From Podospora anserina (taxonomy: Eukaryota), in contig CM030333.1 in NCBI GenBank assembly GCA_017654855.1, forward strand, positions 248,001 through 312,000: a stretch of 64,000 bases of DNA, written 5' to 3'. The notes beneath the pieces were generated by a model. The model made no database searches, was not told the origin of the DNA, and saw only the letters and a program-made list of their open reading frames with translations. Position numbers and translations under genes: made by a program. This document shows positions 15,161 through 59,991 of the stretch, one piece after another (within the stretch, counting starts at the first letter, position 1; every line of letters begins with the position of its first letter).

Positions 15161-15208
15161 AAAACTATATTAAGATTCTCGAAGAAATCGAAAATCCTAA
15201 TACACTAA

Positions 15209-15278: not shown

Positions 15279-15329
15279 AATAAAGACGAAGGAATCTAGA
15301 TATAACTAACGTTACGCGTTTTAACTACC

Positions 15330-15935
15330 CTAAATTAACGGCGTATTACCGGTAGTACCCTATATAGTCAAAAAAGAAGGACCGGCTATACTAGGGTTTA
15401 GGAAAAATTCGGCGGGCTAGTTTAGGCCCAAAGAGAGATCCAGGAAGGAAAAGTCGGAAGAGACGATAGTAAAAGGCTTTACGGCGGGATAATTTTTAAA
15501 AAGAAACGGAACGAATAGATTACTTTTTATACTTAGTTCTTTCTAACTCCTTTATACTATCGAAATTACGAAAGACGGCTCGCGATATTTGTTTTAATTA
15601 AGCTTTTTTTAAGCGACGAAATAACGGACGCTAATATAAGTTACTTCGGTAACTTCCACGGTTTTTTTTTAATTTAGTTTCGACGGTATTATATAGAAAA
15701 GTATTTTAGAAAAGTTAATAACAATATATATTTAAGTATTATAATAATATAAAGTTTAATAAAAATATTTATAGTAACGTAAAGAATCGGAAGAGGAAAA
15801 AACGTAAAAAAGGTTACGGGAAATATACGCGGAGTAGAATAAAAGTACTTTAATCAAATTGCGGAGGATCTTTTTTATAAAGCTTTATTAGTTAAACGCT
15901 TTGAAATATCTTTATTTATTTATACGGTTAAATAT
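15330..15935 (-). pseudogene. Antisense Zn2Cys6 ORF relic, variant B
   Basis: 15836-15741 reads Y-SA-Y-ISRNLF-Y-VFSSSDSLR-Y-YK-Y-FY*TLYY-Y; all six Cys positions are TAC/TAT (RIP of TGC/TGT), spacing X2,X6,X9,X2,X7. Confidence 0.7.
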
Positions 15936-16048
15936 TATAAAAGTAAAGAAAAGTAAAGGGGAATACTTATAGGAAGGAAAAGACGGGAAATAAACAGTTA
16001 TTTTAAAGCTTAAATCGACGGGACTTTAACCTAAAAGAAAAGGTATTA

Positions 16049-16453
16049 TATTATAGTTAAACTAACGGGTAGAGCGGACTATATACAGGGTATAGAATGT
16101 ATAATTAATCGCTAATAAAACTAAATAAAATAGGAATTTCTTTACCTATATAATTATTATTAAAAATTAATAATCTTACGTAGGATTATTACTAAAGATT
16201 TATAATCTAAGCTAGGATTATTATTAAGGGTTAATAATTTAGGAGACTACTAATCTTATATATATAGAGGAACTAGGTAGTATAGATAGATATTTCCGTA
16301 ATATACAATATAAATTATAATTAATAGTATTAAAGCTGCGATAATGAAAACAAACTATTTATTACGTACTATTTAGCTATACCGAACCAGGATTATATAA
16401 ATGTGCCTTTAATTAGCATTCTATTTAGAGGTTCTGGATAGGGGTTTGTTACA
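16049..16453 (+). repeat. 3' LTR (GGATYAT-type U3)
   Basis: Follows purine tract aaaagaaaagg; conserved R/U5; ends ggggtttgttaca. Confidence 0.85.
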
Positions 16454-17068
16454 CGTAGTTGTTATGGCGATAATGTAATCCCGGGTCTATTAAACCTCGC
16501 TCTCGAGTTCCTTAACGCGTTTAATAAGCTGTTCCGTAAGTGTAATATTAAATCTAGTTGTCGTAGCGGAAGGTCCGTCGCTGCCTGGGCTAGGCGGGAT
16601 GTCTTCTATTTAAACGTTTTTAGGTCCGGCTATACTAATGAAAAAACGCTTTCAAGTTATCTATAATAAAGTTAAAGTAAGTATATAACGTATAACGAAC
16701 CCTTATCTATAATCTCTAAAAAGGATATTAGTTAAAGGTACTTTTAAATAATCCTACTTCGGTATAGTTAATTAGTATATAATAAATAGCTTATCTTAAT
16801 TACAATAGTTTAAATACTACCGATTTTAACTTATATTATATACTGTAAAACCATCTATCTATACTAGCCAGTTCCTCCGTATATATAAACCTCCATCCTC
16901 CAGGTACCTCCGTACCTGGCTTACCGTGGCCCACTAGTGATCCGGCTCACCTTTACTAAGAGGTGAGCGCCCCATTACCCTGCAGCCCCGCCGTTACATT
17001 TGCCTTGATTGGCTACTACGGCCTGCTGCAGTTCCCACTTGGTCTTGCTATATAGTTGGTTTGTGACA
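16454..17068 (-). mobile_element. Gypsy remnant: 5' LTR (16691-17068), leader and start of gag
   Basis: LTR tataacgaaccc...ttgtgaca with its own distinct U3; gaaggtccgtcgctgcctgggctaggcgggatgtc matches gag start at 53120-53160 in reverse. Confidence 0.85.
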
Positions 17069-20000
17069 CCTCTTTACCATAGAAACTCCTTTACCGAAGC
17101 CTTATTATACATTAAACAGTACTAAAACATATAGAAGATCAGCTATTACTACTTTTTCTTATTTTAGCTTTTCGACTATATACTATATAATATATATATA
17201 TAATATTGTATATATAATCGATAAGGCTAAACTATAAATTATGTTAAAGGTAACGAGTAACTTATTTATATTTTCTAAAGTTTCTATTAATATCTTCGTA
17301 AAAATATTAAACTCTGAAAGCTTAAACCTCTAATAAAATAAGAATATTAACGGCCTCTATACCTAATACTTTTATTATTAAAAAAGTCAAATACTTCATG
17401 AAATGTAATTAGAATATAGATATATAAAACGATGGATTTTTTTAAAAAAAAGAATATAGTAAAAGGTTAGTTAGCTAAGAAAATAATTATCGTGAAAGTA
17501 GTACTAAATCTAAAGCAACCAAGAAAAAATAAAAGTAAATTTAAAATGGTTATATTTTAAATATAGTAAAAGAGAAACTATATAAAATACATTATGGTAT
17601 AAAAAGGTACTATTCTGTAAGATAATAAACCCAAAATTATTTTAATCATTATTTTTCATATCTATTTTATTTTTATACCTTTAATTTCATTATTATATAC
17701 CTTGTATTTAAAACCTTATTTATTATTGCGGATTTGTTATGTTTTAGACGCTATTAATTTATTAGTAATATAGAATAAACTATTTTAAGAAAATGAATTA
17801 TTTAATACATTACTTTAATGTTTAAGTTATTACATATTATTGATATTTTCTAATACTTTAACTCTAACCTTTCTTATTTAAATACCAAATCCATTCATCC
17901 AAATTACTTATAGGTTAATTAAGAAAAGACTAAAAAAAAGATTCTCAACGTAAATTACTAAATATACAAAAAATATTATTTATTATATGTTGATTATATA
18001 CATTGTATCTATTGCTTAAACTTTTTTTCTAAAAACTTTTAATACTACCTATATAAGCCTAATAACAGTTCTTAAAATTTAAAATTTCTCTATGCGTAAA
18101 CCTTTACTTATATGATAATTACTTTGTACTACTGAAGACCTCGTTAATTAGGTCTATATAAATAAAGGAATGTTATAAAATATCTGTATATTAATTTTTT
18201 AGAAAGTTTTATTACGTTTAATAACTAATTAGCTATAGTTCCCTTTACTAACCTTATTTTATTTTACTATTATACCTTTATCCTTCGCCTTAACTAACAA
18301 TATCAATTGCTTACCTAATTTAGTAATTTTATATTATGAAAATCTTTAAATTCTATAATTATTATAGTAAAGATCCTAATGTTTTTACAATACTTCTAAA
18401 CTTTACTAAGCTATATTTCTTAGTTACTTAAAAATTTAAAACTAAAATATCGAAAAATTATTAGTTAATTCTTTTTTTTAAAATTAAAAGTTTAAACATA
18501 TTTTATTTATAAATATTAATTTAGTAAATATTAGTATTTCCCTTTTTTAAATAAAGTAATATAAGTTTATAATTATATACGTTATTTAACTCTACGTATA
18601 AGGACCTAGTTAGCTAGGCCTCTACAAGAAAGATATTTCTAAGAATTAAGGTCAAGAAATCTCGGGTGATAAGGTATTTATGTTCTAAGTTTTTAACCAT
18701 TCTTATTGTATTTAACAATTAATTGACTATATTTTAATGGTATTTTTTCCTTTTTACATTAATTAGAAATATTATTTCTACATTTCATTTACTTATTTAA
18801 TTTATTTAAGACTTTTAAATTCCATAATAATACTAATGAGTTTTTAAGATAATTATAAGATCTATATAAAGTATTTAGAAATTATATTTTTCTTTAATTA
18901 CTTATAATTTATATTATATAGTATTCTGGAATGTAGTTTTGTTGTAAGTAGGAAGTTATTTTCAGTAGGTAATAAAAAGTAATATTATATTAGTATTATA
19001 TTCCTTTCACATCAATTTAGTGCTCTATTATATTAATTAGGTTTTTTTAGAGTAAAAAAATAGTCTTTTTAATATTACAATACTGGTCCAATACTAGTAG
19101 GTTGATGGATACTGGGTATGTGTGGGTAAGCGGGGCTTTGGGAGCGAGTGAGTAAGTAGTTAAAGCTTTGCCCTAATTAAAGAACTTTACGCTTTAAGTA
19201 AGATTGAAATTTCCTTTTTGGTTTTCTTTAATATATAATTTAATTATTTAGTATAGTATAATTATAATTTCGTTTTAGAACTTATTTAGTAAGTAGTAAT
19301 AAGTATAAACTTTATTTATTATACTTTAAAAATATTTATCTTTTACCCTTTAACTAACTTATAACTCTATATTATTGAATGAACTATATTATTTTGCGGG
19401 CTATATAATTTAACTATAAGTAATTTAGTACCTGATCTTTTTTTTAAAACTGGAATTTTGGTAAGGTCCTCTATAACTATATTTATGAACTCTACTAGAG
19501 CTATGACTAAAGTTAAATGGTAAATTAAAATTAAAATTGATATCTTTATAAACTTAGGTAAATTCCTTAATTAAAACCGTAAATGTGAGATAAACCTCTA
19601 TTCATCTAGTATACTATATAATTGTGTTTTTAATTCCTTATAAATATACTACCCAAATTCTAAATGGTTAAAATACCCCTACATATAGTAATAATAAAAT
19701 TAATAGTAAATTTATTTTATTTAAAGTTAAGAAATCTTTTTAAGAATACAATTTCAGAATCACGTTGTAATTATATCATTGAGGATATATTAATAACTTC
19801 AAGGTAAAAATACGAAGGTTTAATGAATGATATAATTATATAAAAGGTTTTTGTTTACTTTAACCACTTTTACTCAAAAACAATATACTTTTACTTCTTA
19901 GGCTAATATAATATAACAAAAATATACAATACTTTTAAAGATTTATTAAAAAATTTAATCGAGAAATAGCCTTTATATAATATAGTATTTAATTGAAATA

Positions 20001-26000: not shown

Positions 26001-29000
26001 TTGATTTTAATAGTTATATACTATTATTGGAGTTATAAACGCTACGATTTGGGGCTATTTTAGCCCTTCAATATTTACCTTTGTCTTCCTATCTTAATAA
26101 TAAATAAAGTCAAGATTTCCTTTCTTATATTATGCCCCGGTACTTTTCTTTTCAAAAAACCCTGCCTTTTATTTATATTAATAATATTCTTATACTATTA
26201 AATTAAAAACTATTTAAAATATACATTATTTTGAAGAATCGAATTCAAATTATAATATTCATTGTAGCAAAGTATAACTATTAAAAAATATTCTTTTAGT
26301 AGTATTATATAAATAATAAGAAAAGGTTTCTTATTTATTCGGAAATTATAATACAGTAATTAAGGATCTTTATTTAGGATTGCTTCTGATAGAAACTTTA
26401 TATAAATAAAGAGTACTTATAATAAAGAATTACGATACGAGAATTTTTATTAAATACTGTATTACTATGAAATATAGTATTTAATACATAGATATATATT
26501 ATGATTATAATGTTATTAACATACAATGTATTTATTAGTCTTTAGTAATTGATTAGGAAAGTTAAAAAAAAAAGCCCTATATTATGAAGTAGATAGTTTT
26601 TCTTTTTAAATAAAACATGAAAAATAAATAGCAACGAATTATATAAAGTAAGATAGAGGATAAATACATAGTATAGTAAGTTGAAGGTAGAGTATTTAGC
26701 ATCTAAAAAGAGATTAAATAAGGGGTATAGTAGTATAAATATAGATAAATGAATATTTCTATAAAACAAGCTTAATAAGAAATTAAAGGAAACTTCTTTT
26801 AGAATGAATAAATAATAAAAATAGAATTATTAAAAGAATATTTAAAATTTAGGGTTGGGAGGTTATAGTAGTATTTTTAAAAAGATGAAGTTAAAATTTT
26901 GAATAAAAGAATCAACGAAGTAAGTATTGGAAACACTACTGAATAATATATAATCGTTGGAAAATCAGGCGGTATATTTACTTTAAAGTTTTTATAAATT
27001 TATTAGTTTTATAATATAGGATACTGTATATTAAATACTTTACTAGAAACGTAAGACTAGTTTATTATTAGTTTTTAATTTTCACTTAAAATACTAATAA
27101 GTTTCCTTTTATTTATATTAGTTTTGATTAGTCTAAATATACTAAAAACTCTCTTTAATTTATTCGAATAGTTAAAGTATATCGTTACTTTTTATAAATT
27201 ATTCGTAATTAAATATCCTAAGTAATTAGTTAAATATATTAATTATTTTTTATTAAATTACTAATTTAATATTCTTTTTATATTATATTCTTTTTTCCCG
27301 TTCTCCGCTACTTCCTATATATTAATATTACTTACCAGTAATACGGGTTTTAAAAATAAAATATAAAAAGTATATAACCGTAAATATTTTATATTAGGTA
27401 GCTTTCATACGAATATTGTCTTTAATATTTTCCTCTTAATTTTAACAAACCTATTTTTCTATAGTCTGGCTTCCTACTAGGTCCCTTAATATATAAATTA
27501 CATATAGAAAGGAAAACTATATTCCCTGTTTAAAGTAAAGTCCCTTAAACCTTTCAATATTATAATATTCCTACATTCTTTTCCATATAAACTTTGAATT
27601 TTTCTTTACATTTACCGTAAAACATATATAATTTACTTACTTTAACCCTAACCTTAGGTAGTTTATCATTAAATCCTTACCGTAAATTCACCTTTTATAT
27701 AAAGTTTATAAAAGACAATATAACTTTATTTATTTTTATTAGTAATATATAGTAGATTAACTATACTGTACATAGAAATTTAACATAATGACCTTACTTA
27801 AAATTACTATAATCCCGTAAATATTATTTCACAATCTAATTCAGCCGCTTTATTTAATTATTTATTTAAAGATAATAAACTAAAAACGCTTTACTTATCA
27901 CCTCTAGCCTTATTATTAACGCTCTTAAAACTTCGATATAAACCTAATATCGCGGTGCGTAATAACTCTTTTAACGATATATATACTACTGTCATATACT
28001 ATAATACTATATCCGCTAATTAATTTACCTATTAAGTTTCTTTATATAGTAAAAAATATATGTATATAATAAACTTATTACTACCCTTAATAAATTATTA
28101 TATTTAATACCGGCTACTATATCCTTTAATTTTAATAATTTAATAATTAAACTAATTATAGTTCAACTTTATAATTATTCGCTTATTAATAATAGTTTTA
28201 AAAATTTATAAAACTTATACCTTATAACCTTTGTTATTTTATATATATAGTGTTATTAAAAAACTTTCTTAATATTATTTTTAATCCTTAACTAATTAAA
28301 GAACTATTTAATCCTTTCTATAATTTTTATAATACTTATAAATTTACGTACTTCGACCTATACGTTTCTATTACTAATCCCATTTCATTACTCAACCTTG
28401 TATATACTCAATTTTTATACTATAGTTTTCCCTAATTATCCTTTTAAATACTTTATAACTTTAATCTCTGCTATTAATATTACTTTATAATATCGTTATT
28501 TAATATCTCTTGATACTTATTATCAGCAATTTATTTAAATAGATTATATAATACTTTATTTACGGTTAGAGTAAATACTTAAAAATACCTTTTAATATTT
28601 CTTAAGTAATAATAATAATTCCTTAAATAAATTTGTTTAATAATCGGTTTATTATACATATATTTATCCTGATATTTTTCGAACTCTTATTATAATTAAA
28701 TTAAAGCTTAAAATCCGAAAGAAACTTTAACTATCGTGTTTATTATAAGTTAGGAATTTTATTATCTATATAAATATATACTTTATAATTAAAAGTATTA
28801 AAATATAGCTGTTACTTTTTAAAGACTTTAATAATAATAAACAATTCTTATTATAAATTAGACAGTTTAAATATACCTCCTTCTATTTCTTTAAAGAATA
28901 ATTATTAAGTATAATTTTCCATCGTCGGTTCGCTAACCTAATTATCCTTCGATCGTATAATGTAATATATTAGCCTCGAACACGAACGGTCGATTAAAGT

Positions 29001-30967
29001 CTAGTAATTTAAAAATAGGGTCCTTTAAAATAGCTTGTTTTAACCTTTAAAAAGCCTATATTTCCTTTCACCTTTACCGAAACTCTACGTTTTTCTTAAT
29101 TAAATAATTAAATACCTATGTGATCATTACATATTTCCAAAAATAAATCTTATAAAAAGGTTATAAATTTTTAAAATTTTTTAATACATATTAATAATTA
29201 TAACGTAAATTTCTTTTAAATAATATAATTTTCCTAGGTTTTATCTAAACTTTACTTAATAATATTAAATATCCTAACTATATTGTTTTTTATATATAGA
29301 ACTTACTCTTTTCTTTATTAATTGAAGGTCCGGCTTTATATAATACGTTAAATGTTTGTTATATATACTATTTATATTGTGCTAAGATATATAAATAAAG
29401 AAAATTATTACCGAAATAATATATTATTATTTTATTAAGATATTTCTGGATTATATAATGAGTAAGAGATTAAAATGTTATAGGTATATTAAATAATTCG
29501 AATGATATTATAAAGTATTTAAAATATTTATAAGGTATATAAAACCCTATTTTTTATTATTTCTTTCTTTAATCTATATATAAATATATTTAATACGTAT
29601 ATTTAAGTATATAAATTATTATATTTTAGTTAATTAACTCCGTAATTTGGTTATTAATAGTAATAAGTAGTTATTCTTTACCGCCTTTTATCGGTACGAA
29701 GTAAATAGGATATTTTACTAGTAATATAAACTCATTAATATATTTTCTTTTTAAACATTCGTCTTAATATTACCGTAACGTTTTTGTTTACTTACCGTTA
29801 ATATAATAAACGTTAAATAACCGTAGCTTAACTCTTTCTTTTAACTTAATTACGTAGTTCTATAGTCACCGCTTTAAAATCACTTTTAATATTTAACCGT
29901 AAATGTTATATATCTTGAATATTCTACCGGTACCGCTTTTTTCCCGCCTTTTTTTATATTATTATAATAAACATATTAATTAACCTCCGATATTTTTATT
30001 CATATTATTAACCTTACTTCTTTGATTTTACCGCCTATATCTATAAATTATACTATTACTTTTTTAACACCTTACGGTAGAACTATACAAGATACTTATA
30101 TTATACTTTATTCTATATATACTTTTAATTTACTATTTTTAATTAAATACTTTTAAAGGTCTTTTAATGGTAAATAACTACTATCCCTTTAATTGATATT
30201 TAAGTTAAGATTTAATACTATAATTACCCTATAATTATATCCTGCGAGGGTTCTATCTTTATAATATTAAGTATAATTATAATGATTTTCCCTTCGATTA
30301 TAATATTTAAAAATAATATTTCTCTATAAACTCTTTACGTTAAAACTAGTATTTATATTACGATTAATCTTTTTTAAATATCGTAATTTGGTATACGAAT
30401 TATAACGAAATCAAATTTATTTCCGTACTTTTATTTACTAATATAACCGGTTAAATATTTTTTAAATATATTATAATTTAAAAGCGTTTATCTTTCCTAC
30501 TTTTCCTTAATATAATAGTAATTTTATTAATAAATAGCGGGTTATTATTTTATTTTTTTACTTTATACCGATATTTCCGATAATACTTTTTATAGTCTAT
30601 TAAAATTACCGGCCCCCGCGAAAAGCCGGAAATCGTTTCTAAAATAATTATATTCTTTAAAAGGTTTTTCTTATTCAAAGTCATTTAATAACGTAAATTC
30701 TTTTAATTATTTCCGCTTAATATCCTTTTACTTCCGTTTTTAACTTGTTTAATATCTTACTATACTGATATTTAATAGTAGTTTTACTACTTAATCATTT
30801 CTCTAAATTTTTTTGTTTAATAATACCGTTTAACCTTTTTTCGTAAATAAAACGTATAGTCCGGGTTTAAATATTACGTAAGTACTACTTTATTTTGTAA
30901 ATCTATATTATTTTTTGTACCTTATTCTTTTACCTATTGAAAGTAATATCGTATATATTTAAATATA

Positions 30968-32450
30968 ACGTATATTATAAGCGAGTCGTACATATAAGCG
31001 AGTCGTACAGTCTCCACCACCCTACAACAACTATCCTCAATTATACCGCAACAACATTAGGAAGCAACTACAATTACATCAGAAACGGCTGAATCAAATG
31101 ATTCCCCAGCCTCCTGGCAAGTGCGCGCGTTATGGCCAGGCTTGCCGCACACACCACAGCACCGAACCGTCGTACGAGCCCCCCCTGCACTACCGCCATC
31201 CGGCTGTATTTCTTCCACTACCTCCCCACCCACGGCCTTCTGGTCTAGTAGATCCTGTGCATCTTGCACAGTAAGTGATCCTCCGAGCCGTACACGTGTT
31301 TTTTTAGTTCTCCGGCGCTTACTTAGTGCCTCATTGGCCTTACGGAGCGAAGAGACCTCTGCCTGTAAGAGGGCCACTTAGTGCATTACAGCTATCGTAC
31401 CCTTAGTAAATTGATCTATAGCACCTAATATTAAAGTCGGGGAGTTATTTTGATGGTTGGTAATACGAGTCTTGATAAGCGTTAGGTGTGAGTTAGCTTC
31501 TCGGGGGTTTTATAGTGTTTGGAATACCTAAAGGAGTACCGTTATTTGCCCTTCGTACGGGACGATGTATAATAATCGAAGTGCTTGATCCAATCTAGGC
31601 CTACCGGATTGGTAGTCCAGCTATTATCGGTAATTGCGATACGCTAGGTAAACAGTAAATTACACTCGGTATACCAGTTAGTAAAGTAGTATTATGCGGC
31701 TAAAATAATAAAGGGCGGGATAGCCTAGCCGAGGGCATTAACTCCCTAGATTACCGTTACCCACTCGCGGTTACTAGGCTGGGCCAGTTTTACCTTACTA
31801 AGGCCGTCCGAGGTTATAACTACCATACCTACGAAAATAATACCTATTATAAACCTAGTCTCGTCGAAGTTATAAATATCGTTATCTATAATACCGTACT
31901 TAACCTTGGTATTCCGTACGAACGTAAACCACTCGGCAATAACCTTCGGATCCTCGCACTTAGCCCTCTGGTAATCGTATCTACGCGTAAAACGCATACG
32001 GAGCTGTGGCTGGCGTTTAACGAAGTTGTGTGCCCAGAGCTTGCTAACAGGGGGCGCGTCGCGTACGCGCAGCAGTTGGTTAGCCATATCTTCCACACCA
32101 CGTAACCTTAGTGGAAAAGCTCGCGTAGATAGCTTAATAATATAGTAAATAATAGCCTCCTCTTCGGATTGAGTAAGCTTCTTCGATCTGGGCGTAGTAT
32201 CGCGTCGTGCAGGCCGGCCGGCGCGTCGGTTAGAGAGAGTCATAGGTGGTACGTTGTAAAGCTTAGCTACAGCTCGGAGGCTTAATTTTTCGTCCTTTTG
32301 GAGAGCCTTAAGGGCTAAGAGTATCCTGGCTTCCTTTGAAGTAAGAGGCATGTTGGGTTGTGGAAAAAATTGATGTTAGGTGTAAGGAGGACGCGTCGTG
32401 GTGGAGACTGTACGACTCGCTTATATGTACGACTCGCTTATAATATACGT
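30968..32450 (-). mobile_element. Fot1/pogo (Tc1-mariner) DNA transposon, internally deleted
   Basis: 53-bp perfect TIRs (acgtatattataagcgagtcgtacatataagcgagtcgtacagtctccaccac), TA target duplication, 1483 bp. Confidence 0.95.
31057..32351 (-). pseudogene. Fot1/pogo transposase relic
   Basis: HTH/CENP-B-like N-terminus, YNFDET motif, C-terminal CxxCxxxGHxxxxC knuckle; RIP stops and ~375-bp deletion near 31550. Confidence 0.92.
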
Positions 32451-33481
32451 TAAACTATATTACTTAAAAGCTATTGTCTAATTTAATTAAGCCTTAAATT
32501 TCAATAGGAAAAAAATATTTATTTCTTTTTAAACTTTTTCTATTTGACTATTATATTCTTGATTAATTATATTTTACTTTCATTATTTATTTCTTCTACC
32601 GGCTTATAATCGTATAGTAATATACTTTAGAAATATATTATATATTTATATATAATATATTTAAACCAAAGTACTTTTTAATTTTCCGGATTTGTAAAAT
32701 AAAATTATATTATATTTTCTTTATAAAATAAATATTGTATAATTAAAGTTGTTTATTTTAATTATTTTTCGTAGCTTTTATATACGAACTTTTAAATCTT
32801 TAATACTTATTATATATAGATTATCCTATATTATTTATATTACTGTTTTAATTTCGTTTACCGGGTAACTCCTTTTTATTATATAGGACTATCGTTTTTA
32901 ATAACACCCATAGTAATATCTTTAATAATTTATATTAATTAATCTTATAATTTTTATACCTAAAACATTCCTTTTTTATACTTCGCTTTTAACCTTTTTA
33001 TTATATTCCGTAATTTATAAAATTCTACTTCTTTTTATTTAGTATATTAACTACGGTTTTCTTCGAAATTCAAAGCTTTACTTTCTTAATATCTAATAAC
33101 TATAACTTCTATAATCTTTAATACTTTTAATATAGTAATTACCGTAATTTCTTTTTTTAATTAAATTATTTAAATATTTTATAATCCTTTTTAAAGTACC
33201 TTACTTTACTATAATAAAATAACTTAAAATTACTTTAACTTTAATTCCGGCCTTACAGCCTTTACTATTATATAACAACCTCTATCGGTCTTTCGTAAAA
33301 AATACCGGGGTAACTAATATTAAAGTATTACCGCTTACGTTTATCGTTAAAGCGGTTATTACTATACTATCCCTTATTATTATTTCTCTTCTCCGTATAA
33401 CGTTTAAACTACCGATCGTTAATCCGTATAACTATAACGATATATTTATCGATAATATTAAACCTCGACTTTTTATATAAT

Positions 33482-33871
33482 TATAACGAACCCCTATATA
33501 GAACCTTTAAAAGAGATACTGGTTAAAGGTAATTTCTGATAATTGGTTCGGTGTAGCTAAACAGTACACAATAAGATATCTCGATATAAATATAAGATGC
33601 TATGAATATAACTGTGAATTGCATACTGCGGAACTATCTACAAGCTATTTAGTTCCTCCGTATATATAGACCTATAGATTACCTGGATCGCGTTCCTTAG
33701 CGGTGATCCGGATTATATCCTCCACCTGAGGCTCACTATGATCACCGTAATCCTGTCGCTCCGCTCACCGGGATCACCATGAGCCTTTCGCTCCTCTTCC
33801 GACTGGTCCGTAATGACTGGCCAGGGGCGCCCCGCGCCCCGTGCGTTGGTCCCCCATTAACGATTGTGATA
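33482..33871 (-). repeat. Solo Gypsy LTR (GATCAC/GCTCAC-type U3) inserted in gag
   Basis: Conserved R/U5; gag sequence continuous across it; flanks ataat/atact (4/5 TSD). Confidence 0.85.
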
Positions 33872-34532
33872 ATACTTTATCCTTTATTTTTTAAAGCCGT
33901 TATAAAAAAACTATATTAATCCTTTTTTATTAATAGTATTATATAAGCTATGGACTTTAAATAAAACCGCGTAATATATTATTATACGCGTTTAATATAG
34001 ATTTATAAACCTCTTTTACATATACTTTACCTTATCCTACTCCCTAAATACTTCTTTAGATTTTTCCACGAAAATATAATAACTTTTAAAGTATTAAACC
34101 GTAATTTTCTATTAATCTTCCCTCTCTTTATAATAGTTATTTAAGATAGGTTCGAACTATATAAAAGCTTTATATTTAAGCTTAAATACCGTAAAGATTA
34201 TTTTTAATTTTTATTAATAAATTAATATAAATAGTAATAAAATTAGGTTTTAAACTAAGTTAAAAATACTTTAAGCTCTAGCCTTTCTCTTCTATAATAC
34301 TCCAGTACCGGGAACCTGAATATTAATTTAAGTATAATTATTCTAGTAATAATCTAATACCGGATTTATAAGACTTTACTTTGAAACTTTTTAATATATT
34401 TAATAAAGTATTCCGTAAATATAATATCCGATCTAATAATAATAATAAAAGGTCCGTTATTATTTAGGTCCGGCTATAGTAATAAAAATACTTTTAACTT
34501 ATTTATAATAAAGTTAAAATAAATATATACCG

Positions 34533-34940
34533 TATAACGAACCTCTATTTAAAGCCTTTAGAAGGGATACTAACGAAAGATATACTGAAATAATCCTGGT
34601 CCGGTATAACTGAATAATATATATTAAATGAATTATCTTAATTATAATAATTTAAATGTTAATAATTATAACTTATAGTTATATATTACTGAACTATTTA
34701 TCTATATTAGTTAGTTCCTCCTCATATATAGACCTAGGGACCGTGGACCGTTGACTTCCAGACGGTCCTCGGTCCTCTCCTTATTAGCCGATAGTAGACC
34801 GTGGCCCGTAAGCCCCGCCGCGGTCCCCGGTCGCAATCTCATTGGTCTATCTTGTCCACCTAGACCGTAAGCCCCGCTCAATCGCCTGGTCCAGTCCTGA
34901 TTGGTTCCTTACGTCTCCACCTTCTCCCAAAACCGTGACA
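34533..34940 (-). repeat. 5' LTR (GGACCG-type U3)
   Basis: tataacgaacc...aaccgtgaca; adjoins leader and gag start on the minus strand. Confidence 0.9.
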
Positions 34941-48959: not shown

Positions 48960-49029
48960 AACTTCAACGAGAATCGAACCCGCGCTTCCGATATCATAGT
49001 CGATATACTATATACTGTATTATAAAACT
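48960..49029 (-). ncRNA. tRNA-like gene relic inside Gypsy element
   Basis: Same 70-nt length and position as the other copies; GCGGGTTCGATTCTCG T-arm retained, rest RIP-damaged. Confidence 0.6.
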
Positions 49030-49080
49030 AATAAATGTTTAGGGATTTACTTACAAATGACGTTATATACTTTAATTGCT

Positions 49081-49726
49081 TTAAAACGTAAAAGAGTTTT
49101 ACCGGTAGTACTTGAATTAATTAAGAAGAAGGGACCGGTTACGTTAAAGCTAGGACTTAGGGAAAGATCAGAAGGGTAGTCGAGGCTTAAGGGGGAATCT
49201 AAGACATAAAGAGCCTATAAAGCGGCGTTCTAAATGGCTTCCAGCTATATAGAGATATCGTAAGAAGATTCGGGCGGTACGGAAATAGCCGACTATACTA
49301 CCTGAGTGTTTTCCTTTAAATACTCCGCGCAAATAGCCGCTCTTTACGAATATAGAGAGAGAGACGTATTTATCTTATTCCGAGAAGCTTAATGATTGAT
49401 TACGAAAGTGAATCCTTAAGTTTTTACTCTTTACGTTCGAGTTTATTTTGCTTTTTTAAGGCTCGAGTTACTATAAAGCAATTAATTATAATATAAAAGT
49501 AAAAAAGATATACTTACGAGCGGAGCCTACGTTAGAACCGTTATACAGGATTTTACGGCGTACGTATTTAAAATACTGACAAGAGCCGGAGATTACAGTA
49601 TAAGGGATCCTGAAAGTAAAATAAATATAGTAAAGTGTTATAGTAGATTTATTGCGGAAGATTCGTAAAGCGAGAGAAAACTAAGTGTTTAGTTTTACAA
49701 TAACGTTTCTATATACAGTTAAATAT
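49081..49726 (-). pseudogene. Antisense Zn2Cys6 ORF relic, variant C
   Basis: 49632-49543 reads Y-YI-Y-FTFRIP-Y-TVISGSCQ-Y-FK-Y-VRRKIL-Y-NG; six TAC/TAT codons with spacing X2,X6,X8,X2,X6. Confidence 0.7.
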
Positions 49727-49817
49727 AATAAAGTACGGTAAAAAAAAAGATTTATAACATTATTAAAGTTAAACAAAAATTAGGCTGTAGGGACTTTAGC
49801 CTAAAAAGGAAGTGTTA

Positions 49818-50163
49818 TATTACGGTTTTGGGAAACGGTAGAGATATAAGTAACTATTGACCGCTGGACCGGGCGATTTTACGGGGCTTACCGTCAAATA
49901 AATAGGACAGACCAATAAAATCTGGACCGAGGACCGTAGTGGGGCTTACGATCCATGGTTCTAAGGTCTATATGTACGGAGGAACTAGCTAGTGTAGATA
50001 AATAGTTCCGTAGTATATAATATAAATTATAAGGTTAGTATCTTAACTATTATAATTAAGACAAGCCATTATTTTATACTGTTTATCTATGCCAAAACAG
50101 GATTATTTAAAAGTGCCTTTGACTAGTATCCGTTTTAGGGGTTCTGGATAGGAGTTCGTCACA
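49818..50163 (+). repeat. 3' LTR (GGACCG-type U3)
   Basis: After purine tract aaaaaggaag; tattacggttttggg...gttcgtcaca. Confidence 0.88.
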
Positions 50164-52651: not shown

Positions 52652-53035
52652 TGTCACGGCTTGACACTTTGGTGGGGCGCGGGGCGCACCACGGGCCAAT
52701 CATTAGTACAGGAGCGAGGACCAATTAAAGCAGGATCATTGGGATCGAGGATCGATCCAGAAGAGTCAATCCCAAAAGGGACAGTATCGATAGGATCGAT
52801 GGTCGAGTCAATCGATCCAGGATAGTGCTAGGCTTGGCACAGGGTCTATATATACGGAGGAACTGGCTGGTGTAGATAGACAGTTCCGCAGTATGTAATT
52901 TAAGCTTGTATTCACGGTATTTAGTGTTTACATTGAGACATCTTGTTATGCACTATTTAGCTACACCGAACCAATTGTTAGAAGTTACCTTTAACCAGTA
53001 TCCCTTTCAGAGGTTCTGTACAGGGGTTCGTCACA
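52652..53035 (+). repeat. 5' LTR (GATCGA-type U3)
   Basis: tgtcacggcttgacac...ggggttcgtcaca; CCAAT boxes; TATA at ~52847. Confidence 0.97.
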
Positions 53036-53037
53036 CG

Positions 53038-53046
53038 TTGCATACT
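53038..53046 (+). promoter_or_regulatory. Self-priming primer-binding site
   Basis: TTGCATACT is the reverse complement of AGTATGCAA in the LTR (52890-52898, one RIP change; intact in LTRs 2066, 33482, 38696); no TGG tRNA-type PBS. Confidence 0.75.
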
Positions 53047-53092
53047 CACTTCAACTCTGTCACGGATAAGTTAAAGGCGTCTTTTTACTACC

Positions 53093-56000
53093 ATGGCCCA
53101 ACCCGAGAACGTTCAGATGGGAGGCGTCCCGCCTAGCCTAACTATCGAGGGACCTTTTACGGCAGACGCCAGGTTCAGGGTCACCACGGCTCAATAGCTT
53201 ATCGATCGCGTTAAAGAGTTTAAAGCCGAAGCCCAGTAGACCAGGGAGCAGGTTCTTGCTCTCTCGGCGGCTAGGCCCACGCACGTAACTAAGTTCCCGG
53301 CACCGGAGCACTATAGAGGCGGAAAGGCAGAGCTTAAAGGTTTTTTAATCTAGTTTAAAATTTATTTTCGTTACTACCCGGAATAGTTCGATACGGAGGA
53401 GTCGAAGGTAGTATACGTAGCTACCTGGCTTAAGGATAAAGCTTTTATTTAGTTCGAGCCTATTTTTAACGACTATTACGAGGTAGTGGCGGAGGACCAG
53501 AAAGAGATTACTGTCCAGTGTTTTCGGAGTTACCGAGCCTTCGAAATAAAGTTTAAAAAAATATTTAGGGAATATAATAAAGGTAGGTGCGCGTAAGAGA
53601 AGCTCGCGAATCTACGGTAAATACGTTCGGTAACGGAATATATTATTTAGTTTAAAATTAATAATTTACGTAACGAAATTAACGATAAGGGATTAATATA
53701 AACCTTTTATAATAGCCTTAAAGAAAAGGTAAAGGACGAATTATATAAGGAGGAAAGGCTTAACACTATCGATAAATATATTACTATAGTTATACGGATC
53801 GATAATAAATAATTCTAACGTCGTGCGGAGAAGAGAAACTATAATAATCGGGGTTATTACGGAAATTACCGCTCTAATAATAAACGTAAATAATAATATT
53901 TAACTACTAATTACTCCGGTACTATATATTCGGGATTTATAAATATCGATACTATATAGTAATAAAGGTTATAAGGCTAGGGCTAAAGTAAAGATAACTA
54001 TAAGTATTTTAATTATAGTAAAGTAAGATACTTTAAAAAGGATTACCGGGCACTTAAGTAACTTAAATAAAAAAAAGAGGTTACCGTAATAATTATTATA
54101 TCGAAGGGACCGAGGGTTATAGAAGTCGTAGCTATCGGGTATTAATAAAGTAAAATAATAAACTTCGAAGAAAACTTTAATTAATATACCGAATAAAAGG
54201 AAATAGAGTTTTAGGGGCTACGGGAAGTAATGGAAAGGCTAAAAGCAAAGTATAAAGAAAAAAACCTTTAAATATTAATATTCTAGAATCGATTAATATA
54301 AATTACTATAGAAATCGCTACGAAAGTTATTAAGGATAATAACGTTATATAGTAGGAAGGACTTATTATATAAACGATATTAAAAAAGTAATACGGTAAG
54401 CGTAGGATCGTTATTTCGCAAGAAATATTATTATTTATAAAGCTCGTATATAAATATTAAGAAAAATATTAAAAAGGTAAGAAGGTCGCTAATATCGGGA
54501 TCGCGAAATTATTAAGAAATATATTTATACTTATATAATATATACCCTATAAAGGAAATATAATATAATTTTATTCTAAATATCCGGAATATCGGAAAAT
54601 ACTTTAATTTTAATATATTATATACGGATATATAAAGTACTACTAAAATAAATCGCTATACGGTTACTAGCCGGTACGTAAGTTTATACTAAAATATATA
54701 AAATACTACGTTAAATATACGAACGGTTAGGATATAAATAATAATATATATTTTTAGGAAAAAGTGGTACTAGGTTAGTGCCTAAACCCAAATTACGCAC
54801 TATATTTATAAAAAAAAGTTAAACGATATTATTAAATAAAAGTATTTAAATAAACGATTAAATAAAAAAACCGTTATCGGATATATATATAAAAAAATAT
54901 TAAATATATAAAAGACGGAAAATAGGAGGAAACTAGGTAAGTATAGTTAAAAGACTTTATATTATTAAATAACCCGGAGTAAAAGGATATTTTTAAACGA
55001 TATAACTATTTAAAAAACGATTCGCGGCCCTTCGTAGGGGCCGGTAATCTTTAATAAATTACGAATAGTATTTTCGGAAGTATTAGCGTAAGGCGAAGGT
55101 ATAGGATAATAATCCGGTACTCGTTAACGAGGTCGTTACTATATAAAGAAGAAGTAAAAAAAATAAACGCTTCTAGGTTATAGTATACTAAAAAAATATT
55201 TAGGCGGTAATATTAATAGACGGCGGTATAAAGACAAACCTAATTTCGTTATAGTTCGTATACTAAACTCGTATACTATAAAAAAAAAAAAAGGAATGGA
55301 TCGTTATATAAAAATTATTTCCAACGTAAAAAGTCTATAGAAAAACATTACCTTTAAATATTATAGTCGAAGGAAAAATAACTTTAATTATATTTAATAT
55401 TATAAATATAGGACCCTCGAAGGATATAATCCTAGGGTAACTATAGCATAAAGACTATAACCTAGATATTAATTAGAGGAATAGTAACTATTTATAATTA
55501 AAAGAACCTTAAAAGTATTTAATTAACGATAGGAGATTAGGCATACGTATAGAGTAGAGTATAGGATAAGTACCTTCCACGGTACTACCGTAAGGAGCCT
55601 AAAAAGTAATAATATACTTTATCGATATAAGTAATAAAATCGAAAAAGTAAAGTTAACGACGTTAATAGAAATATCGGAGGTTAATAAATATATTTATTA
55701 TAATTATATAAAAAAAAATAAAAAAAAAGTAATATTAATAAAATATTAAAGATATTTAACCTTTACGGCTAAATATTTAGAGGGACTTTTAAAGCGAGGA
55801 CCGTAGGACTACGAAATTAAATTAAAAAAAGGAGCTAAGCTATAGCTATTTAAAGTTTACTATACTAACGATAAATAAAATAAAAAACTATAAAAGTATT
55901 TAAACGAAAATCTAAAAAAAAAATATATTAGGGAGTCTATATCGCTAGTAGGATACCCCATATTCTTTATACCGAAAAAGGACGGTAATTTACAATTATA

Positions 56001-58641
56001 TATAGATTACCGCTAGCTAAATAACGAGACGGTAAAAAATAGTTACCCGCTATCGTTAATATCTAAGTTACGGAGTTAATTAATAAGGGCGTGATATTTT
56101 ATACGCTTAAATATACCTATCGGGTATACTTATATACAGATTAAAAAAAGAGATAAATAGAAAATAACGTTTTGTATACCCTATAATTATTTTAAGTATC
56201 TCGTAATACTATTTAGGCTAACTAATACGCCCGTAACGTTCTAATCTCTCGTTAATTATATAATCCGGAAGTACCTCGATAAAATAATAATATACTATTT
56301 TAACGATATTTTTATTTATTTATATACTTTAAAGGAATATAAGTAATATATATAAAAAATACTCGACGTACTATACGGAGCTAGACTTTTAATTAATAAA
56401 AAGAAAAATAAATTCTACGTATAAAAAATAATATATTTAGAATATTTAATATCGTTAAGTAAGGTTCGTATAGAATTTAAAAAAATTATAGTAATTAAGG
56501 ACTAGTTTACACTATAATTATAAATATACGTTAAGGAATTTTTAAGGTTTATAAATTTTTACCGGATATTTATTTATAAATATATAAGTATTACGCGGTT
56601 ATTTAATTACTTAATTAAAAAGGATATAGAGTTCCGGTAAGGGTAAAAAGAAGAGTAGGCCTTCCAGGAGCTAAAAGAGGCTATTTTAAAGGACCCGGTA
56701 CTTAAATTGCTAGATCTTAGTCGACCGTTCGAGGTCGAGGCGGATATATTAGATTATACGATTAATAAATAATTAAGATAGCGAAACGACGATAAAAAAC
56801 TATACTTAGTAACTTTCTTTTCGAAGAAATTAAAGGAGGTACGTTAAAACTACCTAATCTACAATAAAAAGCTACTTACTATTATCGAAACGTTCGAAGA
56901 ATGGAGGCCCTACCTTAATAATACTAATTATAAAATACAGGTCTATACGGATTATAAAAACCTATAATACTTTACTATTACGAAGGTCTTTAACGTATAG
57001 TAAACGCGATAGTTAAAGTTTTTTTCGGAATTTAATTTCTAGATTAATTATAAAAAAGGTTCGGAGAACGCTAGGGTAAACGCACTTAGCCGGCGGGCCG
57101 ACCACCACAAAGATACATCCAAGGAGTCACTACTATTACTTAAAGAAACGCTAAACGGTACTTTTAAGTATCTACTATAGCTATAAATAGAGTATTACGT
57201 AGTGTATTGCGAGAGGGCTACTTCCAGTAAGTACTAAAGGAAGTTAGGCAGCGATATTATAGAGTAATATTAATAGAAAAAATTAGAGCCATAAGGCATC
57301 CAAAAAAATAGTTAGGGAAGATTATAGTATAAGAATCGAGTATACGTAATACTAGGTAATAGAACGACATTAGTGATAGAGATTTATGGATCGAAGTTCG
57401 GAGGATATATAAGTATCGTAAAGACTATAGAAAAAATTAAATAATACTTTAATTAATTAAGGATTAAGGACGACGTTAAAGAAATTATTTAATTATACTA
57501 TACGTATAAAAAAACGAGGGTTACGAAGTATAAGCCTTATAGATTTCTAGAGTTATTATTAATAGTAAAACGACTATAAAGTTTAATTACGATAAATTTT
57601 ATTACTAAATTACTAAAGTTTAAAAATACAGTAACTAGCGTTAAGTATAATAATATATTAACGGTAATCGATAAGCTTACTAAATAAGTATACTTCTTAT
57701 TATATAAAGAAACCTAATCGGTAAAGTAATTAATAAATATAGTACTATAATATATTATATTAATATATATATAATTAAAAGAATTTATTACGGACCGCGA
57801 TACTAAATTTATATTAAAGTTTTAAAGAGCGTTAATAACGAGGCTCGGGGTAATAAGTAAAGCGTCTTTAGCTTATTACCCTTAGACGGACGGTTAAACG
57901 GAACGGCTTAATTAAATTATAAAATAATATTTACGGAATTATATTAATTTCGAGTAAAATAATTAGGTTAAACTTTTACTTATAGTATAATTAATATATA
58001 ATATATTATTAATTAAAACGACTAAAGCTATACCGTTCTTCGTAAATTTTAAATATAAAATAAACCTACGGTAGGGACCTAGCGTTAAAGTACCTAAGGC
58101 TAGGGTTAAAGTAAATAAACTATATATACTCTACGGTAAGCTTAAGTAAAAACTGGAATTTATAAAGAAAAGGATACGGAAATACTATAATACTAAAAGA
58201 CTTAAGGAACCTCGCTTTAAAGGGGGAAATATAATATTCCTTTCTATACGTAATTTACGTATTAAAAGACTTAGCAAGAAGCTAGACTATAGGAAAGTAG
58301 GCCCGTTTAAAGTTAAAAAGAAAATATCGGAGACGGTATTCGAACTAAAGTTACCTAGTACGATACGTCTACGGTTATATACTTTTCACATTTCACTTCT
58401 GGAACCCGCACCACCAGCGAATAAGGCTAATATACAGGTAGTAGCGGAGGATAAAGAAAAAGAGTACGATATAGAAGAAATACTAGATTTACGGTTTAAC
58501 AGAGGTTAATTAAAGTATTTAATTAGTTAATTAAGATATCCAGCCACAAATAACTCGTAGGAACCAGAAGCATATCTTAACTACCTAGATAAGCAAAAAG
58601 CATTCCACCGGTAATACCCGGACCGACCAAAACCTAAGTAA
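53093..58641 (+). pseudogene. gag-pol relic
   Basis: De-RIP motifs: KFPAPEHY.GGKAELKGFL, CFNCGKVGHFKKDC (~54005), LIDGG protease (~55215), YYFDDI RT (~56293), YTDHKNL and DALSR RNase H, TDRDTKF and AYHPQTDGQTER integrase, GPFKV, EYDVEEILD..NSWEP chromodomain; true stop uncertain. Confidence 0.92.
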
Positions 58642-58696
58642 TAAAAAGATCTGTGCCCAAGCCACGGAGAGGTATCCATGAACTTAGACACAAAAG

Positions 58697-58766
58697 AACC
58701 TCGGCAGGAATCGAACCTGCGCCTTCGACGTGGTAGCCGACGTACTACACACTACACTACAAAGTT
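58697..58766 (-). ncRNA. tRNA-like (tRNA-Gly-GCC-like) gene inside Gypsy element
   Basis: AACTTTG TA GTGT AGTGTGTA GTAC G TCGGC TACCAC GTCGA AGGC GCAGG TTCGATT CCTGC CGAGGTT then CTTTT; cloverleaf, A/B-box-like motifs, T4 run. Confidence 0.75.
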
Positions 58767-58817
58767 AGAAAGTATGAAGGGGACTAAATATAAGTAGTAC
58801 CACGCGCCTCAACCACC

Positions 58818-59501
58818 CTAGGGAGGGGAAGGCGCGCCGACGGCAACATCTTGGGCGGCCAGGAAGGAAGGACCGGCCACGCCCGGATCCAGGGAGAAGT
58901 TAGGTGACCAGTCGAAGCCTGAGGCAGGACCTAGGAAAGAGAAGTCGGAAGGCAGGGTATTGGAAGACTCTGCCGTGGGACGGCCCCGGGGATCTGGAGA
59001 GGCGGGGGCCGGAGGAGGAGGAGGAGGAGCGTCGCCAGGCGGCGAGACAGACTGTGCGGCCAGCGCAGCTTCCTCCTGCTCAACACGCTCCAGCTCTTCC
59101 ACACTGTCAAGGCCACGGGAGACGGCCGCAGCCATCCGCTCAAACCACATTCGTTTCTATAAGCGTAGGCGGTTAATTTTCTAATCCAAGGCCGCGCGTT
59201 GGGACTCGGCCTCTACCATCTCCGTCTCTAACTAATCGTGTTGGGAGATGACCTTACGGAGCTGCTGGACGGACAACCCACGAGCGTCGCAAAGGGATTA
59301 GTTATACTGTATATAGGAAGCGCAACGATCGGAGACGGAAGGGGAAATCTTGCAGGAGAAGCCACGCCTCTCGTAAAAGGAACAAATACGCTTTATAATA
59401 ATGGCAAACCGTAAGATAGTAGCAAGTAGCTCGTCACGATCCGCGGTTTTCGAGTGCAAAGGTTTAATACCGGGTCGCGCCTTACTTACGCGGTTAAACA
59501 T
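58818..59501 (-). pseudogene. Antisense Zn2Cys6 / coiled-coil / Pro-rich acidic-tail ORF, variant A (227 codons)
   Basis: Track ORFs 59298-59501 and 58818-59150 are in one frame, separated by four TAA/TAG codons consistent with RIP of Gln; C-SF-(Y>C)-ERRGFS-C-KISPSVSDR-C-AS-(Y>C)-IQYN*SL-C. Confidence 0.85.
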
Positions 59502-59591
59502 AATAAAGCATAATAAATAGGGGAAAAAGGGGAGAACTTACAAGCGTTGGTAGACGTAGGAGAGTAGGCTAGGCCGACGGGACTTCGGCCT

Positions 59592-59602
59592 AGGAGGGGG
59601 AG
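59592..59602 (+). promoter_or_regulatory. Polypurine tract
   Basis: aggagggggag 5 nt before the 3' LTR. Confidence 0.8.
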
Positions 59603-59607
59603 CGTCG

Positions 59608-59991
59608 TGTCACGGCTTGACACTTTAATAGGGCGCGGGGCGCACCACGGGCCAATCATTAGTACAGGAACGAAGACCAATTAGAGCAGGATCATTAGGA
59701 TCGAGGATCGATCCAGAAGAGTCAATCCCAAAAGGGACAGTATCGATAGGATCGATGGTCGAGTCAATCGATCCAGGACAGTATTAGGCTTAGCACAGGG
59801 TCTATATATACGGAGGAACTGGCTGGTGTAGATAGATAGTTCCGTAGTATACAATTTAAGCTTATATTTACGGTATTTAGTATTTACATTGAGACATCTT
59901 ATTGTACACTATTTAGCTGCACCGAACTAATTGTTAGAAGTTACCTTCAACCAGTATCCCTTTCAGAGGTTCTGTACAGGGGTTCGTCACA
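59608..59991 (+). repeat. 3' LTR (GATCGA-type U3)
   Basis: Direct repeat of 52652-53035. Confidence 0.97.

Follow-up and report, generated by a model that had tools for sequence, protein, structure and literature searches.

An antisense zinc-cluster-like gene beside palindromic U3 arrays in a RIP-mutated Ty3/gypsy family of Podospora anserina: linkage and recombination of the 3' block

Introduction

Long terminal repeat (LTR) retrotransposons are generally thought to rely on host transcription factors, and element-encoded regulators of LTRs are, to our knowledge, known mainly from complex retroviruses. A 64-kb stretch of Podospora anserina DNA (contig CM030333.1, positions 248,001 to 312,000; the whole stretch is called the window here) raises the question of whether a fungal element may carry such a regulator. 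Three copies of one Ty3/gypsy retrotransposon family in the window have, between pol and the 3' LTR and on the opposite strand, an open reading frame (ORF) with a six-cysteine motif. The ORFs are very unlike each other, and each adjoins a different U3, the part of the LTR in which short motifs are arrayed. The initial annotation had named these ORFs zinc-cluster variants A, B and C, had assigned a private U3 motif to each and had proposed that ORF and U3 change together as a factor tuned to its own LTR. We find that membership of the copies in diverged subfamilies underlies their differences in ORF and U3. ORF and U3 form a 3' block that is copied in one piece and that recombination exchanges between subfamilies; the two parts can also come apart.

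Results

Retrotransposon copies in the window

The GC content of the window ranges from 17 to 46% (2-kb steps), and only one ORF of at least 150 codons is present across the 64 kb. Self-comparison reveals one LTR-retrotransposon family nested on both strands, with a coding part that is 65-75% identical between copies. At least four copies of this Ty3/gypsy family, mutated by repeat-induced point mutation (RIP), make up the window together with solo LTRs and a second repeat family. Feature coordinates are given in Table 1.

Copy 4, which carries variant A, is full length. Its LTRs (52652-53035 and 59608-59991) are 384 bp long and 93.75% identical, have the ends TGTCAC...GTCACA and are flanked by GTGTA and ATGTA, a 5-bp target duplication if one RIP transition is allowed. 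Frame 3, translated with X at the stops, matches the Pfam families RVT_1 (1.2e-08), RT_RNaseH_2 (6e-21), RT_RNaseH (5.8e-17) and SH3_Tf2-1 (1.2e-12); the other two frames match none. The purine tract GGAGGGGGAG ends 5 bp ahead of the 3' LTR. The pol domains in gypsy order, the TG...CA LTRs, the purine tract and the target duplication identify copy 4 as a Ty3/gypsy element. Towards its end, the translated pol has a stretch (EYDIEEILD...KYL) that looks chromodomain-like by eye; Pfam returned no chromodomain match. Copy 2 is cut off after a transfer RNA (tRNA)-like stretch, and no remnant of an ORF or 3' LTR was found beyond it (z <=3 for every part sought). The window therefore offers only three ORF-U3 pairs, the number first reported.

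An antisense gene of a zinc-cluster-like family

The ORF of variant A runs from a basic N-terminus through the six-Cys motif (59289-59384) and a coiled coil to an acidic and hydrophobic tail. Variant B must be frameshifted because its coiled-coil remnant (15529-15618) sits in a different frame. As RIP turns TGY into TAY, tyrosine was admitted in the search pattern, [C/Y]x2[C/Y]x6-7[C/Y]x8-12[C/Y]x2[C/Y]x6-8[C/Y]. The pattern occurs four times in the six-frame translation of the window (127,996 residues), and three of these occurrences are the minus-strand ORF sites of copies 4, 1 and 3, the three places at which antisense frames had been claimed. The Cys spacing is identical in A and B (2/6/9/2/7), and C alone deviates (2/6/8/2/6); the changed spacing that had been described is thus real for C and absent between A and B. 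The hidden Markov model (HMM) of the protein family described below matches variant A with an E-value of 1.4e-52 and variant B weakly (E 0.14), with no match to variant C. Pfam gave no Zn_clus match for the three RIPed window ORFs (X at stops).

The translation of the copy 4 ORF finds seven intact homologues of 126-229 residues, with E-values down to 1.3e-40. With one intact homologue as query, an exhaustive HMMER search returned 557 cluster representatives at E <=1e-3, 178 at 1e-10 and 27 at 1e-30. The named members are called 'hypothetical protein', four of them bearing the UniRef name 'Zn(2)-C6 fungal-type domain', and the nearest ESM Atlas clusters are Ascomycota 'hypothetical proteins' without a Pfam family. 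Sordariomycetes supply the genera Fusarium, Gaeumannomyces, Pyricularia, Cordyceps, Hirsutella, Microdochium, Podospora, Thermothelomyces, Parathielavia, Corynascus, Staphylotrichum and Canariomyces; Aulographum is the sole Dothideomycete genus among the named members, and no Botrytis or Sclerotinia name is found among them. Among 8000 candidates, none at E <=0.001 was a longer, fused relative, though this is weak evidence. The accessory ORF is a genuine widespread accessory gene, not a chance frame; it encodes a product of about 225 residues and is conserved throughout a broad clade of these elements.

The alignment of 45 members shows C39, C42 and C49 to be invariant and C59, C62 and C70 to be 96-98% conserved. 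S56, R58 and D71 are as conserved as the six cysteines, and a further conserved motif reads R-L-R-K-Q-K-x-W...R-G-x-D-x-x-E-E-L-E-x-x-E. The spacing of PF00172, CX2CX6CX5-12CX2CX6-8C, is that of the family, and window variants A, B and C share it if Y stands for C. When the family profile was compared with solved structures, PUT3 was the best match (E 0.01 and 0.023), with the six cysteines and the downstream coiled coil aligned; LAC9 and RSC30 were found lower, and the remaining matches are coiled coils. Zn_clus is the Pfam family matched by the largest number of members (10 of 45 at E <=1, best 0.0011). Family sequence P0001 scores 9.2 bits (E 1.8) against Zn_clus (PF00172), under the gathering threshold of 21 bits. 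The AlphaFold2 model built from the alignment has a mean predicted local distance difference test (pLDDT) value of 83.4, short helices near the cysteines and a 52-residue helix at residues 77-128. All six Foldseek matches of the model in the PDB at E <=10 are Zn2Cys6 DNA-binding domains (Pho7 twice, Leu3 four times), although the matches are weak (E 0.42-2.6, best probability 0.87). The accessory protein is Zn2Cys6-like and probably a divergent member of the zinc-cluster class. The zinc-cluster likeness seen in the initial annotation is borne out to this extent by the six cysteines and the PUT3 match, though below the Pfam threshold.

In Gal4-type proteins, the segment between Cys2 and Cys3 holds the base-contacting lysines and reads the bases. 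No conserved basic residues are found in this segment of the family; positions 43-48 have an entropy of 2.3-2.9 bits (commonest residues E, S, R, G, L and S) and are among the most variable of the structured part. The C-terminal tail has the motif D-F-x-x-L-W-D-x-V-Y-P-x-V-x-L-E-P-S-L...G-P-S-F-L (P0001, P0007, P0010 and window 58818-58990, minus strand), and two short helices are located there in the model. We infer from its acidic and hydrophobic character that the tail is reminiscent of an activation region.

The same architecture in metagenome loci

Scanning metagenome contigs with an eight-sequence alignment of the family gave 28 loci. Since 16 of the 28 carry one record prefix, the loci are not independent; most of them represent a small number of subfamilies. 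A gypsy pol on the opposite strand adjoins the homologue tail-to-tail in 21 of the 28 loci and, with a closer query, in four more (25/28); the three loci without a tail-to-tail pol have a flank of <=607 bp. In every locus with enough flank, the region upstream of the ATG is arranged as in the window, with a conserved leader, a hairpin, a purine tract and an LTR beginning with TGTCACGG or its RIP form. The order within the LTR is GC box, CCAAT, repeat array, TATATATA and R/U5 ending in GTTCGTCACA. These ORFs are 44-45% identical to ORF A of the window (tblastn, P0001 and P0003), and their pol is 42-44% identical.

Palindromes in the U3 regions

The U3 regions account for 3.2% of the window yet hold 17 of its 27 GGATCG words, 15 of 25 GGACCG and 9 of 37 GGATTAT, in agreement with the concentration of these motifs first noticed. 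Across 19 U3s, inverted repeats of 6 nt number 31 at N12 and 27 at N14, whereas shuffles average 0.8 and never exceed 4; the counts are inflated, as related copies are included among the 19. Where spacings of N8-18 were allowed in GGAnnn...nnnTCC rows, N14 occurs in 27 of 38, which defines a 26-bp palindrome, GGAnnn-N14-nnnTCC. The palindromes, in arrays that are specific to the subfamily and lie between the CCAAT and TATA boxes, are a conserved U3 feature of these elements, and their fixed span would suit binding by a dimeric zinc-cluster protein at the predicted sites.

In variant A there are two N14 sites per LTR. The A-type sites of the copy 4 3' LTR recur in its 5' LTR (52652-53035), and a solo LTR at 38691-39078(-) retains both N14 sites. 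A second B-type LTR (2080-2470) has three sites, and because one of them reads GGATTA-N14-CGATCC, we take the B array to be RIPed GGATCG. The U3s of A and B have half-site and spacing in common, with the remainder of the U3 unalignable. The separate GGATYAT array that had been assigned to B is therefore lost: its GGATTA-N14-TAATCY sites are the A-type site after RIP. Two further LTR types in the window have different palindromes.

The metagenome U3s add to this range. Subfamily alpha has five GGATCG sites and subfamily beta has two GGAACG and one GGAATA; locus L015 has two GGAACG and one AGAACG, L010 three GGAACG, the delta array GGATCT, L026 one palindrome site and L025 GGATTA-N14-TAATCC. The half-sites vary chiefly in the inner three bases (TCG, ACG, CCG and TCT). 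GGATCG-N14-CGATCC is common to window A and metagenome alpha despite different residues between Cys2 and Cys3 (ERRGFS versus KGLGLV). Its presence in A, B and the distant family argues against private specificities, and with it the claim of a private U3 motif for each variant falls. By-eye comparison of about ten ORF-site pairs gave no apparent simple code that relates the residues between the cysteines to the half-site.

RIP and genuine divergence of the variants

The variants were compared with a RIP-tolerant alignment score, in which transitions count nearly as matches. Only three islands align: the ORF start with the purine tract and LTR start (59481-59618), a piece of the coiled coil (59070-59157) and the ORF tail. 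The ORF start and purine tract of copy 3 (49712-49828) can be aligned to A. Neither the Cys region nor the U3 array gave an alignment between variants under this score. The best local score of the variable stretch is 64-92; an 800-bp pol control reaches 1039, and unrelated AT-rich DNA scores about 33-45. Transversions amount to 3-5% in pol, 7-13% in the part of gag/protease compared and 11-15%, with many gaps, in ORF and U3; over the last ~2.6 kb of pol they are 3-6% for A-B, 5-8% for A-C and 7-10% for B-C. The gag-pol region had been called closely colinear, which describes pol (3-10%) and not the gag/protease part.

The RIP index, (CpA+TpG)/(ApC+GpT), of copy 4 is 0.06-0.20 in pol, and the ORF tail (1.25), U3 (1.16) and 5' LTR (1.02) are nearly unRIPed. 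Such mosaic RIP would be expected if, at the time of RIP, the genome held repeats of pol but not of this 3' block. It fits a pol common to many subfamilies and a copy 4 3' block that was rare in the genome.

That the variants are one sequence made unlike by RIP alone is scarcely credible. RIP has left its mark on all copies, Cys became Tyr at many motif positions and the GGATTAT of B is a RIP product of GGATCG. However, the Cys regions and arrays stay unalignable although transitions are tolerated and pol scores 1039, transversions and gaps are three-fold higher in the ORF/U3 blocks, C has a different Cys spacing and the A block is barely RIPed. As the variants fail to align under the tolerant score and the A block is so little affected, RIP alone is insufficient for the differences, and on this point we concur with the initial annotation. 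A RIP-only origin is refuted for A versus C and for the Cys regions, and is valid solely for the array motif of B.

Linkage and recombination between ORF and array

ORF and array were compared in 18 of 21 metagenome loci, representing five ORF types; L012, L016 and L026 were left out as their anchors failed. Divergences are transversions only, to avoid RIP noise. Between alpha and beta, pol differs by 1.6-2.1% (2.4-3.1% at third codon positions), R/U5 by about 2-3% and gag by 15-18%. The ORF differs by 14.2, 8.0 and 13.3% at codon positions 1, 2 and 3, and the arrays are unalignable. The third positions of the ORF are thus about five times as diverged as those of pol, so the ORF blocks predate the pol beside them, which points to recombination and not to rapid protein adaptation alone.

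Pairs of single loci were compared in the same way. L013 (beta) and L009 (epsilon) have 0-4 transversions per 250 bases (~0.3-1%) in gag and most of pol, but their ORFs are 8-12% apart and their arrays are unrelated; the 3' block has therefore been exchanged on a near-identical gag-pol. L009 and L010 are both epsilon and differ by 0-1% in the ORF, with arrays 36% apart, which is background (unrelated pairs 25-45%). The array of L010 is of the GGAACG kind also present in beta and L015; their ORF type is 8% distant from that of L010. Of the five ORF types, one (epsilon) is accordingly paired with two unrelated arrays, and arrays of the GGAACG kind accompany two ORF types (beta and epsilon). L013 and L015 are identical in the Cys region (0%) and 11% apart in the ORF tail. 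The related metagenome family is a recombination mosaic.

Reverse transcription derives the U3 of both LTRs from the RNA's 3' end, so ORF and U3 move as one block; that the ORF adjoins the U3 and is inherited with it was correctly seen at the outset. Template switching in conserved pol or in the leader island would move this block or split it. Linkage together with template switching explains the 'changing together' of ORF and U3 without co-evolution. Among the 18 loci, no assortment of ORF type with array type beyond physical linkage was found.

Leader island, tRNA-like sequence and neighbouring repeats

The segment from the ORF start to the LTR is a conserved island (Table 1). Across three subfamilies of the metagenome family with ORFs 8-19% apart, the equivalent island (ATG to LTR start) shows not a single transversion over 146 aligned bases. 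Leader island and R/U5 are nearly unchanged between alpha and gamma (judged by eye, uncounted); because the third positions of pol differ by 18% between these two, this conservation reflects constraint and not recency. A hairpin directly ahead of the purine tract is also located in L001 (1910-1952, minus strand) and L002 (375-415, minus strand). Its stem varies by family (CTAGGCCGA, TCTTTCG, CCTTTG), with GGA(C) kept in the loop. The hairpin is predicted in four of six folds, that of L025 being uninformative, and the z-scores are weak (-1.4 to -2.9). The leader of the antisense ORF also contains a word resembling a 5' splice site, GTAAGT or GTGAGT: ACTTACAAG on the plus strand is CTTGTAAGT on the ORF strand (59536-59544). 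The word is found upstream in L002, L008, L009 and L025, that is, in distant elements, and may mark a leader intron or a U1 site.

The tRNA-like sequence is retained in at least four copies of the window family. That of copy 4 matches Rfam RF00005 over its full length with 43.1 bits (gathering score 29, E 2e-07). Its anticodon loop reads ACC, possibly a RIPed GCC. No tRNA gene was found in the 20 loci of the related metagenome family that were scanned (of 28). The sequence might be a terminator of the antisense transcript or a captured gene.

The 5' LTR of copy 1 is without the palindrome array and TATA box present in its 3' LTR (9230-9330 versus 16120-16290); the loss is a deletion of ~170 bp between two AGGA words. 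The second repeat family lies among the gypsy copies at 30959-32457, 44411-46288, 51589-52651 and 60007-60772. Its 201-codon ORF (31746-32351, minus strand) has weak matches to Tc5 transposase and a Psq helix-turn-helix, just under the Pfam thresholds. By these matches the family looks like a pogo/Fot-like DNA transposon.

Table 1. Positions of retrotransposon features in the 64-kb window
Feature	Position	Strand	Remarks
Copy 4 (variant A), full-length RIPed Ty3/gypsy element, 7340 bp	52652..59991	+	LTR pair, flanks, Pfam
Variant A accessory ORF, 227 codons, 4 internal RIP-type stops	58818..59501	-	Copy 4, single frame
Variant B accessory ORF remnant, heavily RIPed, frameshifted	15300..15935	-	Copy 1; six-[C/Y] motif 15741-15836
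Variant C accessory ORF remnant	49041..49730	-	Copy 3; six-[C/Y] motif 49543-49632
3' LTR of copy 4	59608..59991	+	Order: TGTCACGG start, GC box, CCAAT, palindrome array, TATATATA (~59803), R/U5 ending GTCACA
3' LTR of copy 1 (B type)	16049..16456	+	
3' LTR of copy 3 (C type)	49818..50163	+	
A-type U3 array	59689..59774	.	GGATCA-N14-CGATCC 59689-59714; GGATCG-N12-CAATCC 59705-59728; GGATCG-N14-CGATCC 59749-59774
B-type sites, copy 1 3' LTR	16183-16208; 16215-16240		GGATTA-N14-TAATCT; GGATTA-N14-TAATTT
C-type site, copy 3 3' LTR	49931-49954		GGACCG-N12-CGATCC
C-type array, 5' LTR	36242-36511	+	
C-type array, 5' LTR	34531-34936	-	GGACCG-N12-CGGTCC at 34745-34768
Copy 2, 5' LTR with C-type U3	26969..34936	-	Element ends directly after tRNA-like stretch
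tRNA-like sequence, copy 4	58696..58766	-	Between pol and ORF, just 3' of ORF stop, on the ORF's strand; ARAGORN
tRNA-like sequence, copy 1	15208..15278	-	ARAGORN
Stretches homologous to tRNA-like sequence	26969-27063; 48956-49048		
Conserved island, ORF start to LTR	59502..59607	+	Hairpin 59569-59593 (loop CGGGACT); purine tract 59593-59602; ACTTACAAG 59536-59544

Discussion

Our best explanation traces the three loci to as many subfamilies of a single chromovirus-type Ty3/gypsy family, all degraded by RIP in a RIP-competent ascomycete, and combines an accessory antisense gene, U3 palindromes, linkage with recombination and a putative dimeric regulator of U3. Taken jointly, all of this has about an even chance of being right. 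The accessory protein would bind DNA as a dimer and exert its regulation at the U3 palindromes. The array is located between the TATA box facing gag-pol and the antisense gene and could serve both transcription units. Its site would be largely common across subfamilies (GGATCG in A, in B and in the distant family) and not private. An element-encoded regulator that binds its own LTR, possibly with autoregulation, is plausible from the sequence data. A more far-reaching version has a broad ascomycete gypsy clade encoding a minimal Gal4-like activator that would bind its own 26-bp U3 palindromes and drive both the genomic RNA (from the 5' LTR) and itself (from the 3' LTR), with exchangeable specificity cassettes of Cys2-Cys3 segment and inner triplet serving escape from each other's or host control; we regard this as quite improbable.

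Several observations weigh against our interpretation. The U3 of L009 is without any GGA...TCC palindrome, and the array is therefore not obligatory. The 28 metagenome loci comprise only about 5-9 independent types. Each multi-copy lineage (alpha with six loci, beta with eight) keeps to one ORF-array pair, discordant combinations being confined to single loci, a picture that selection for matched pairs would give equally. The last point also counts for the co-diversification first proposed, in which each subfamily's factor is tuned to its own U3 motif and DNA-binding residues and half-sites would diversify together into private activation or anti-silencing loops. The high variability of the Cys2-Cys3 segment (2.3-2.9 bits) suits such a process, as do half-site differences mainly in the inner three bases and the departure of window C from A and B in half-site (GGACCG), spacing (N12) and Cys spacing at once. 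Yet A and B share half-site and spacing though their Cys regions are unalignable as DNA, and window A and metagenome alpha have the same palindrome with different Cys2-Cys3 residues. The epsilon ORF occurs with two unrelated arrays (the L009/L010 discordance), GGAACG arrays accompany both beta and epsilon ORFs, and 3' blocks have been swapped on near-identical gag-pol, so that co-variation cannot be read as co-evolution. Moreover, the third positions of the ORF are as diverged as the first (13.3% versus 14.2%), which indicates old ancestry moved by recombination and not a burst of protein adaptation. We consider co-diversification unlikely.

Alternatively, the palindromes could be sites of a conserved host factor, with the accessory protein doing another job (nucleic-acid binding, copy number, silencing interference or control of host genes). 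Elements with ORFs that are only 44-45% identical and vary between the cysteines have the outer GGA...TCC and the 26-bp span in common, L009 keeps the ORF without such palindromes, and the protein falls under the Pfam Zn_clus threshold, all of which would be accounted for. Against a host factor, a six-Cys cluster followed by coiled coil and acidic tail is how a minimal dimeric activator is built, with PUT3 as the best solved match, and gene and array stay adjacent across a wide clade. Zinc-cluster proteins also bind palindromes with xCG/CGx half-sites. A host factor thus seems to us a serious contender, if a somewhat unlikely one, and the dimeric regulator encoded by the element is the reading we prefer.

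Zn2Cys6 regulators such as Put3, Gal4, Leu3, Pho7 and AflR resemble the accessory protein in the arrangement CX2CX6-7CX8-12CX2CX6-8C followed by a dimerising helix, and in palindromic half-sites containing CG; the AflR site is TCG-N5-CGA. The accessory protein differs in falling below the Pfam threshold, in its size of ~200 residues without a middle-homology region and in being encoded by a retrotransposon, and the half-sites beside its gene are 14 bp apart, unlike those of these regulators. Among retroviruses, human T-cell leukaemia virus type 1 (HTLV-1) HBZ is an antisense basic leucine zipper protein expressed from the 3' LTR, and foamy-virus Tas and HTLV Tax are activators acting on U3. 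By analogy, the accessory gene would likewise be a 3'-end gene for a dimer-type regulator, here putative, that targets the LTR of its own retroelement; the protein folds and hosts differ. VANC proteins are anti-silencing factors of Arabidopsis VANDAL transposons, whose short target motifs have accumulated in the non-coding DNA of their own family. VANDAL is a DNA transposon with an unrelated protein, and specificity that diversifies with the motifs is unsupported by the recombinants found here.

The nearest precedent in position is brtn, an antisense extra gene between pol and the 3' LTR of chromodomain gypsy Boty-like elements, also of filamentous ascomycetes (Botrytis cinerea and Sclerotinia); passages in citing papers credit it to Zhao et al. 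2011, Virology 417:248 (PMC8365987, PMC7264820, PMC4227169). brtn and the window ORF can be likened by position and description; a zinc-cluster reading or a link to U3 palindromes does not appear in the brtn descriptions in these passages. Antisense additional ORFs between pol and the 3' LTR are also described, as conserved within families, for the plant gypsy elements Grande, RIRE2, Retand and PvRetro13, and the function of antisense additional genes is stated there to be unknown (PMC7264820). Position and orientation are those of the window ORF, whereas the plant elements belong to another kingdom and to non-chromovirus lineages, with no cysteine cluster reported in the descriptions on which this comparison draws.

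Our literature search found no zinc-cluster gene in an LTR retrotransposon and no link between such a gene and U3 palindromes; supplements outside the full-text search could hold relevant annotation. An antisense zinc-cluster-like gene beside a palindromic U3 is widespread and apparently undescribed. The finding identifies a large family of 'hypothetical' proteins (557 cluster representatives without a Pfam family) as the accessory gene of a widespread fungal gypsy clade, and it explains hundreds of gene models that fungal annotation had left as orphans. It further shows that subfamilies of these elements trade their 3' ends in modular fashion. The accessory gene could explain how such elements are switched on in fungi, many plant-associated species included.

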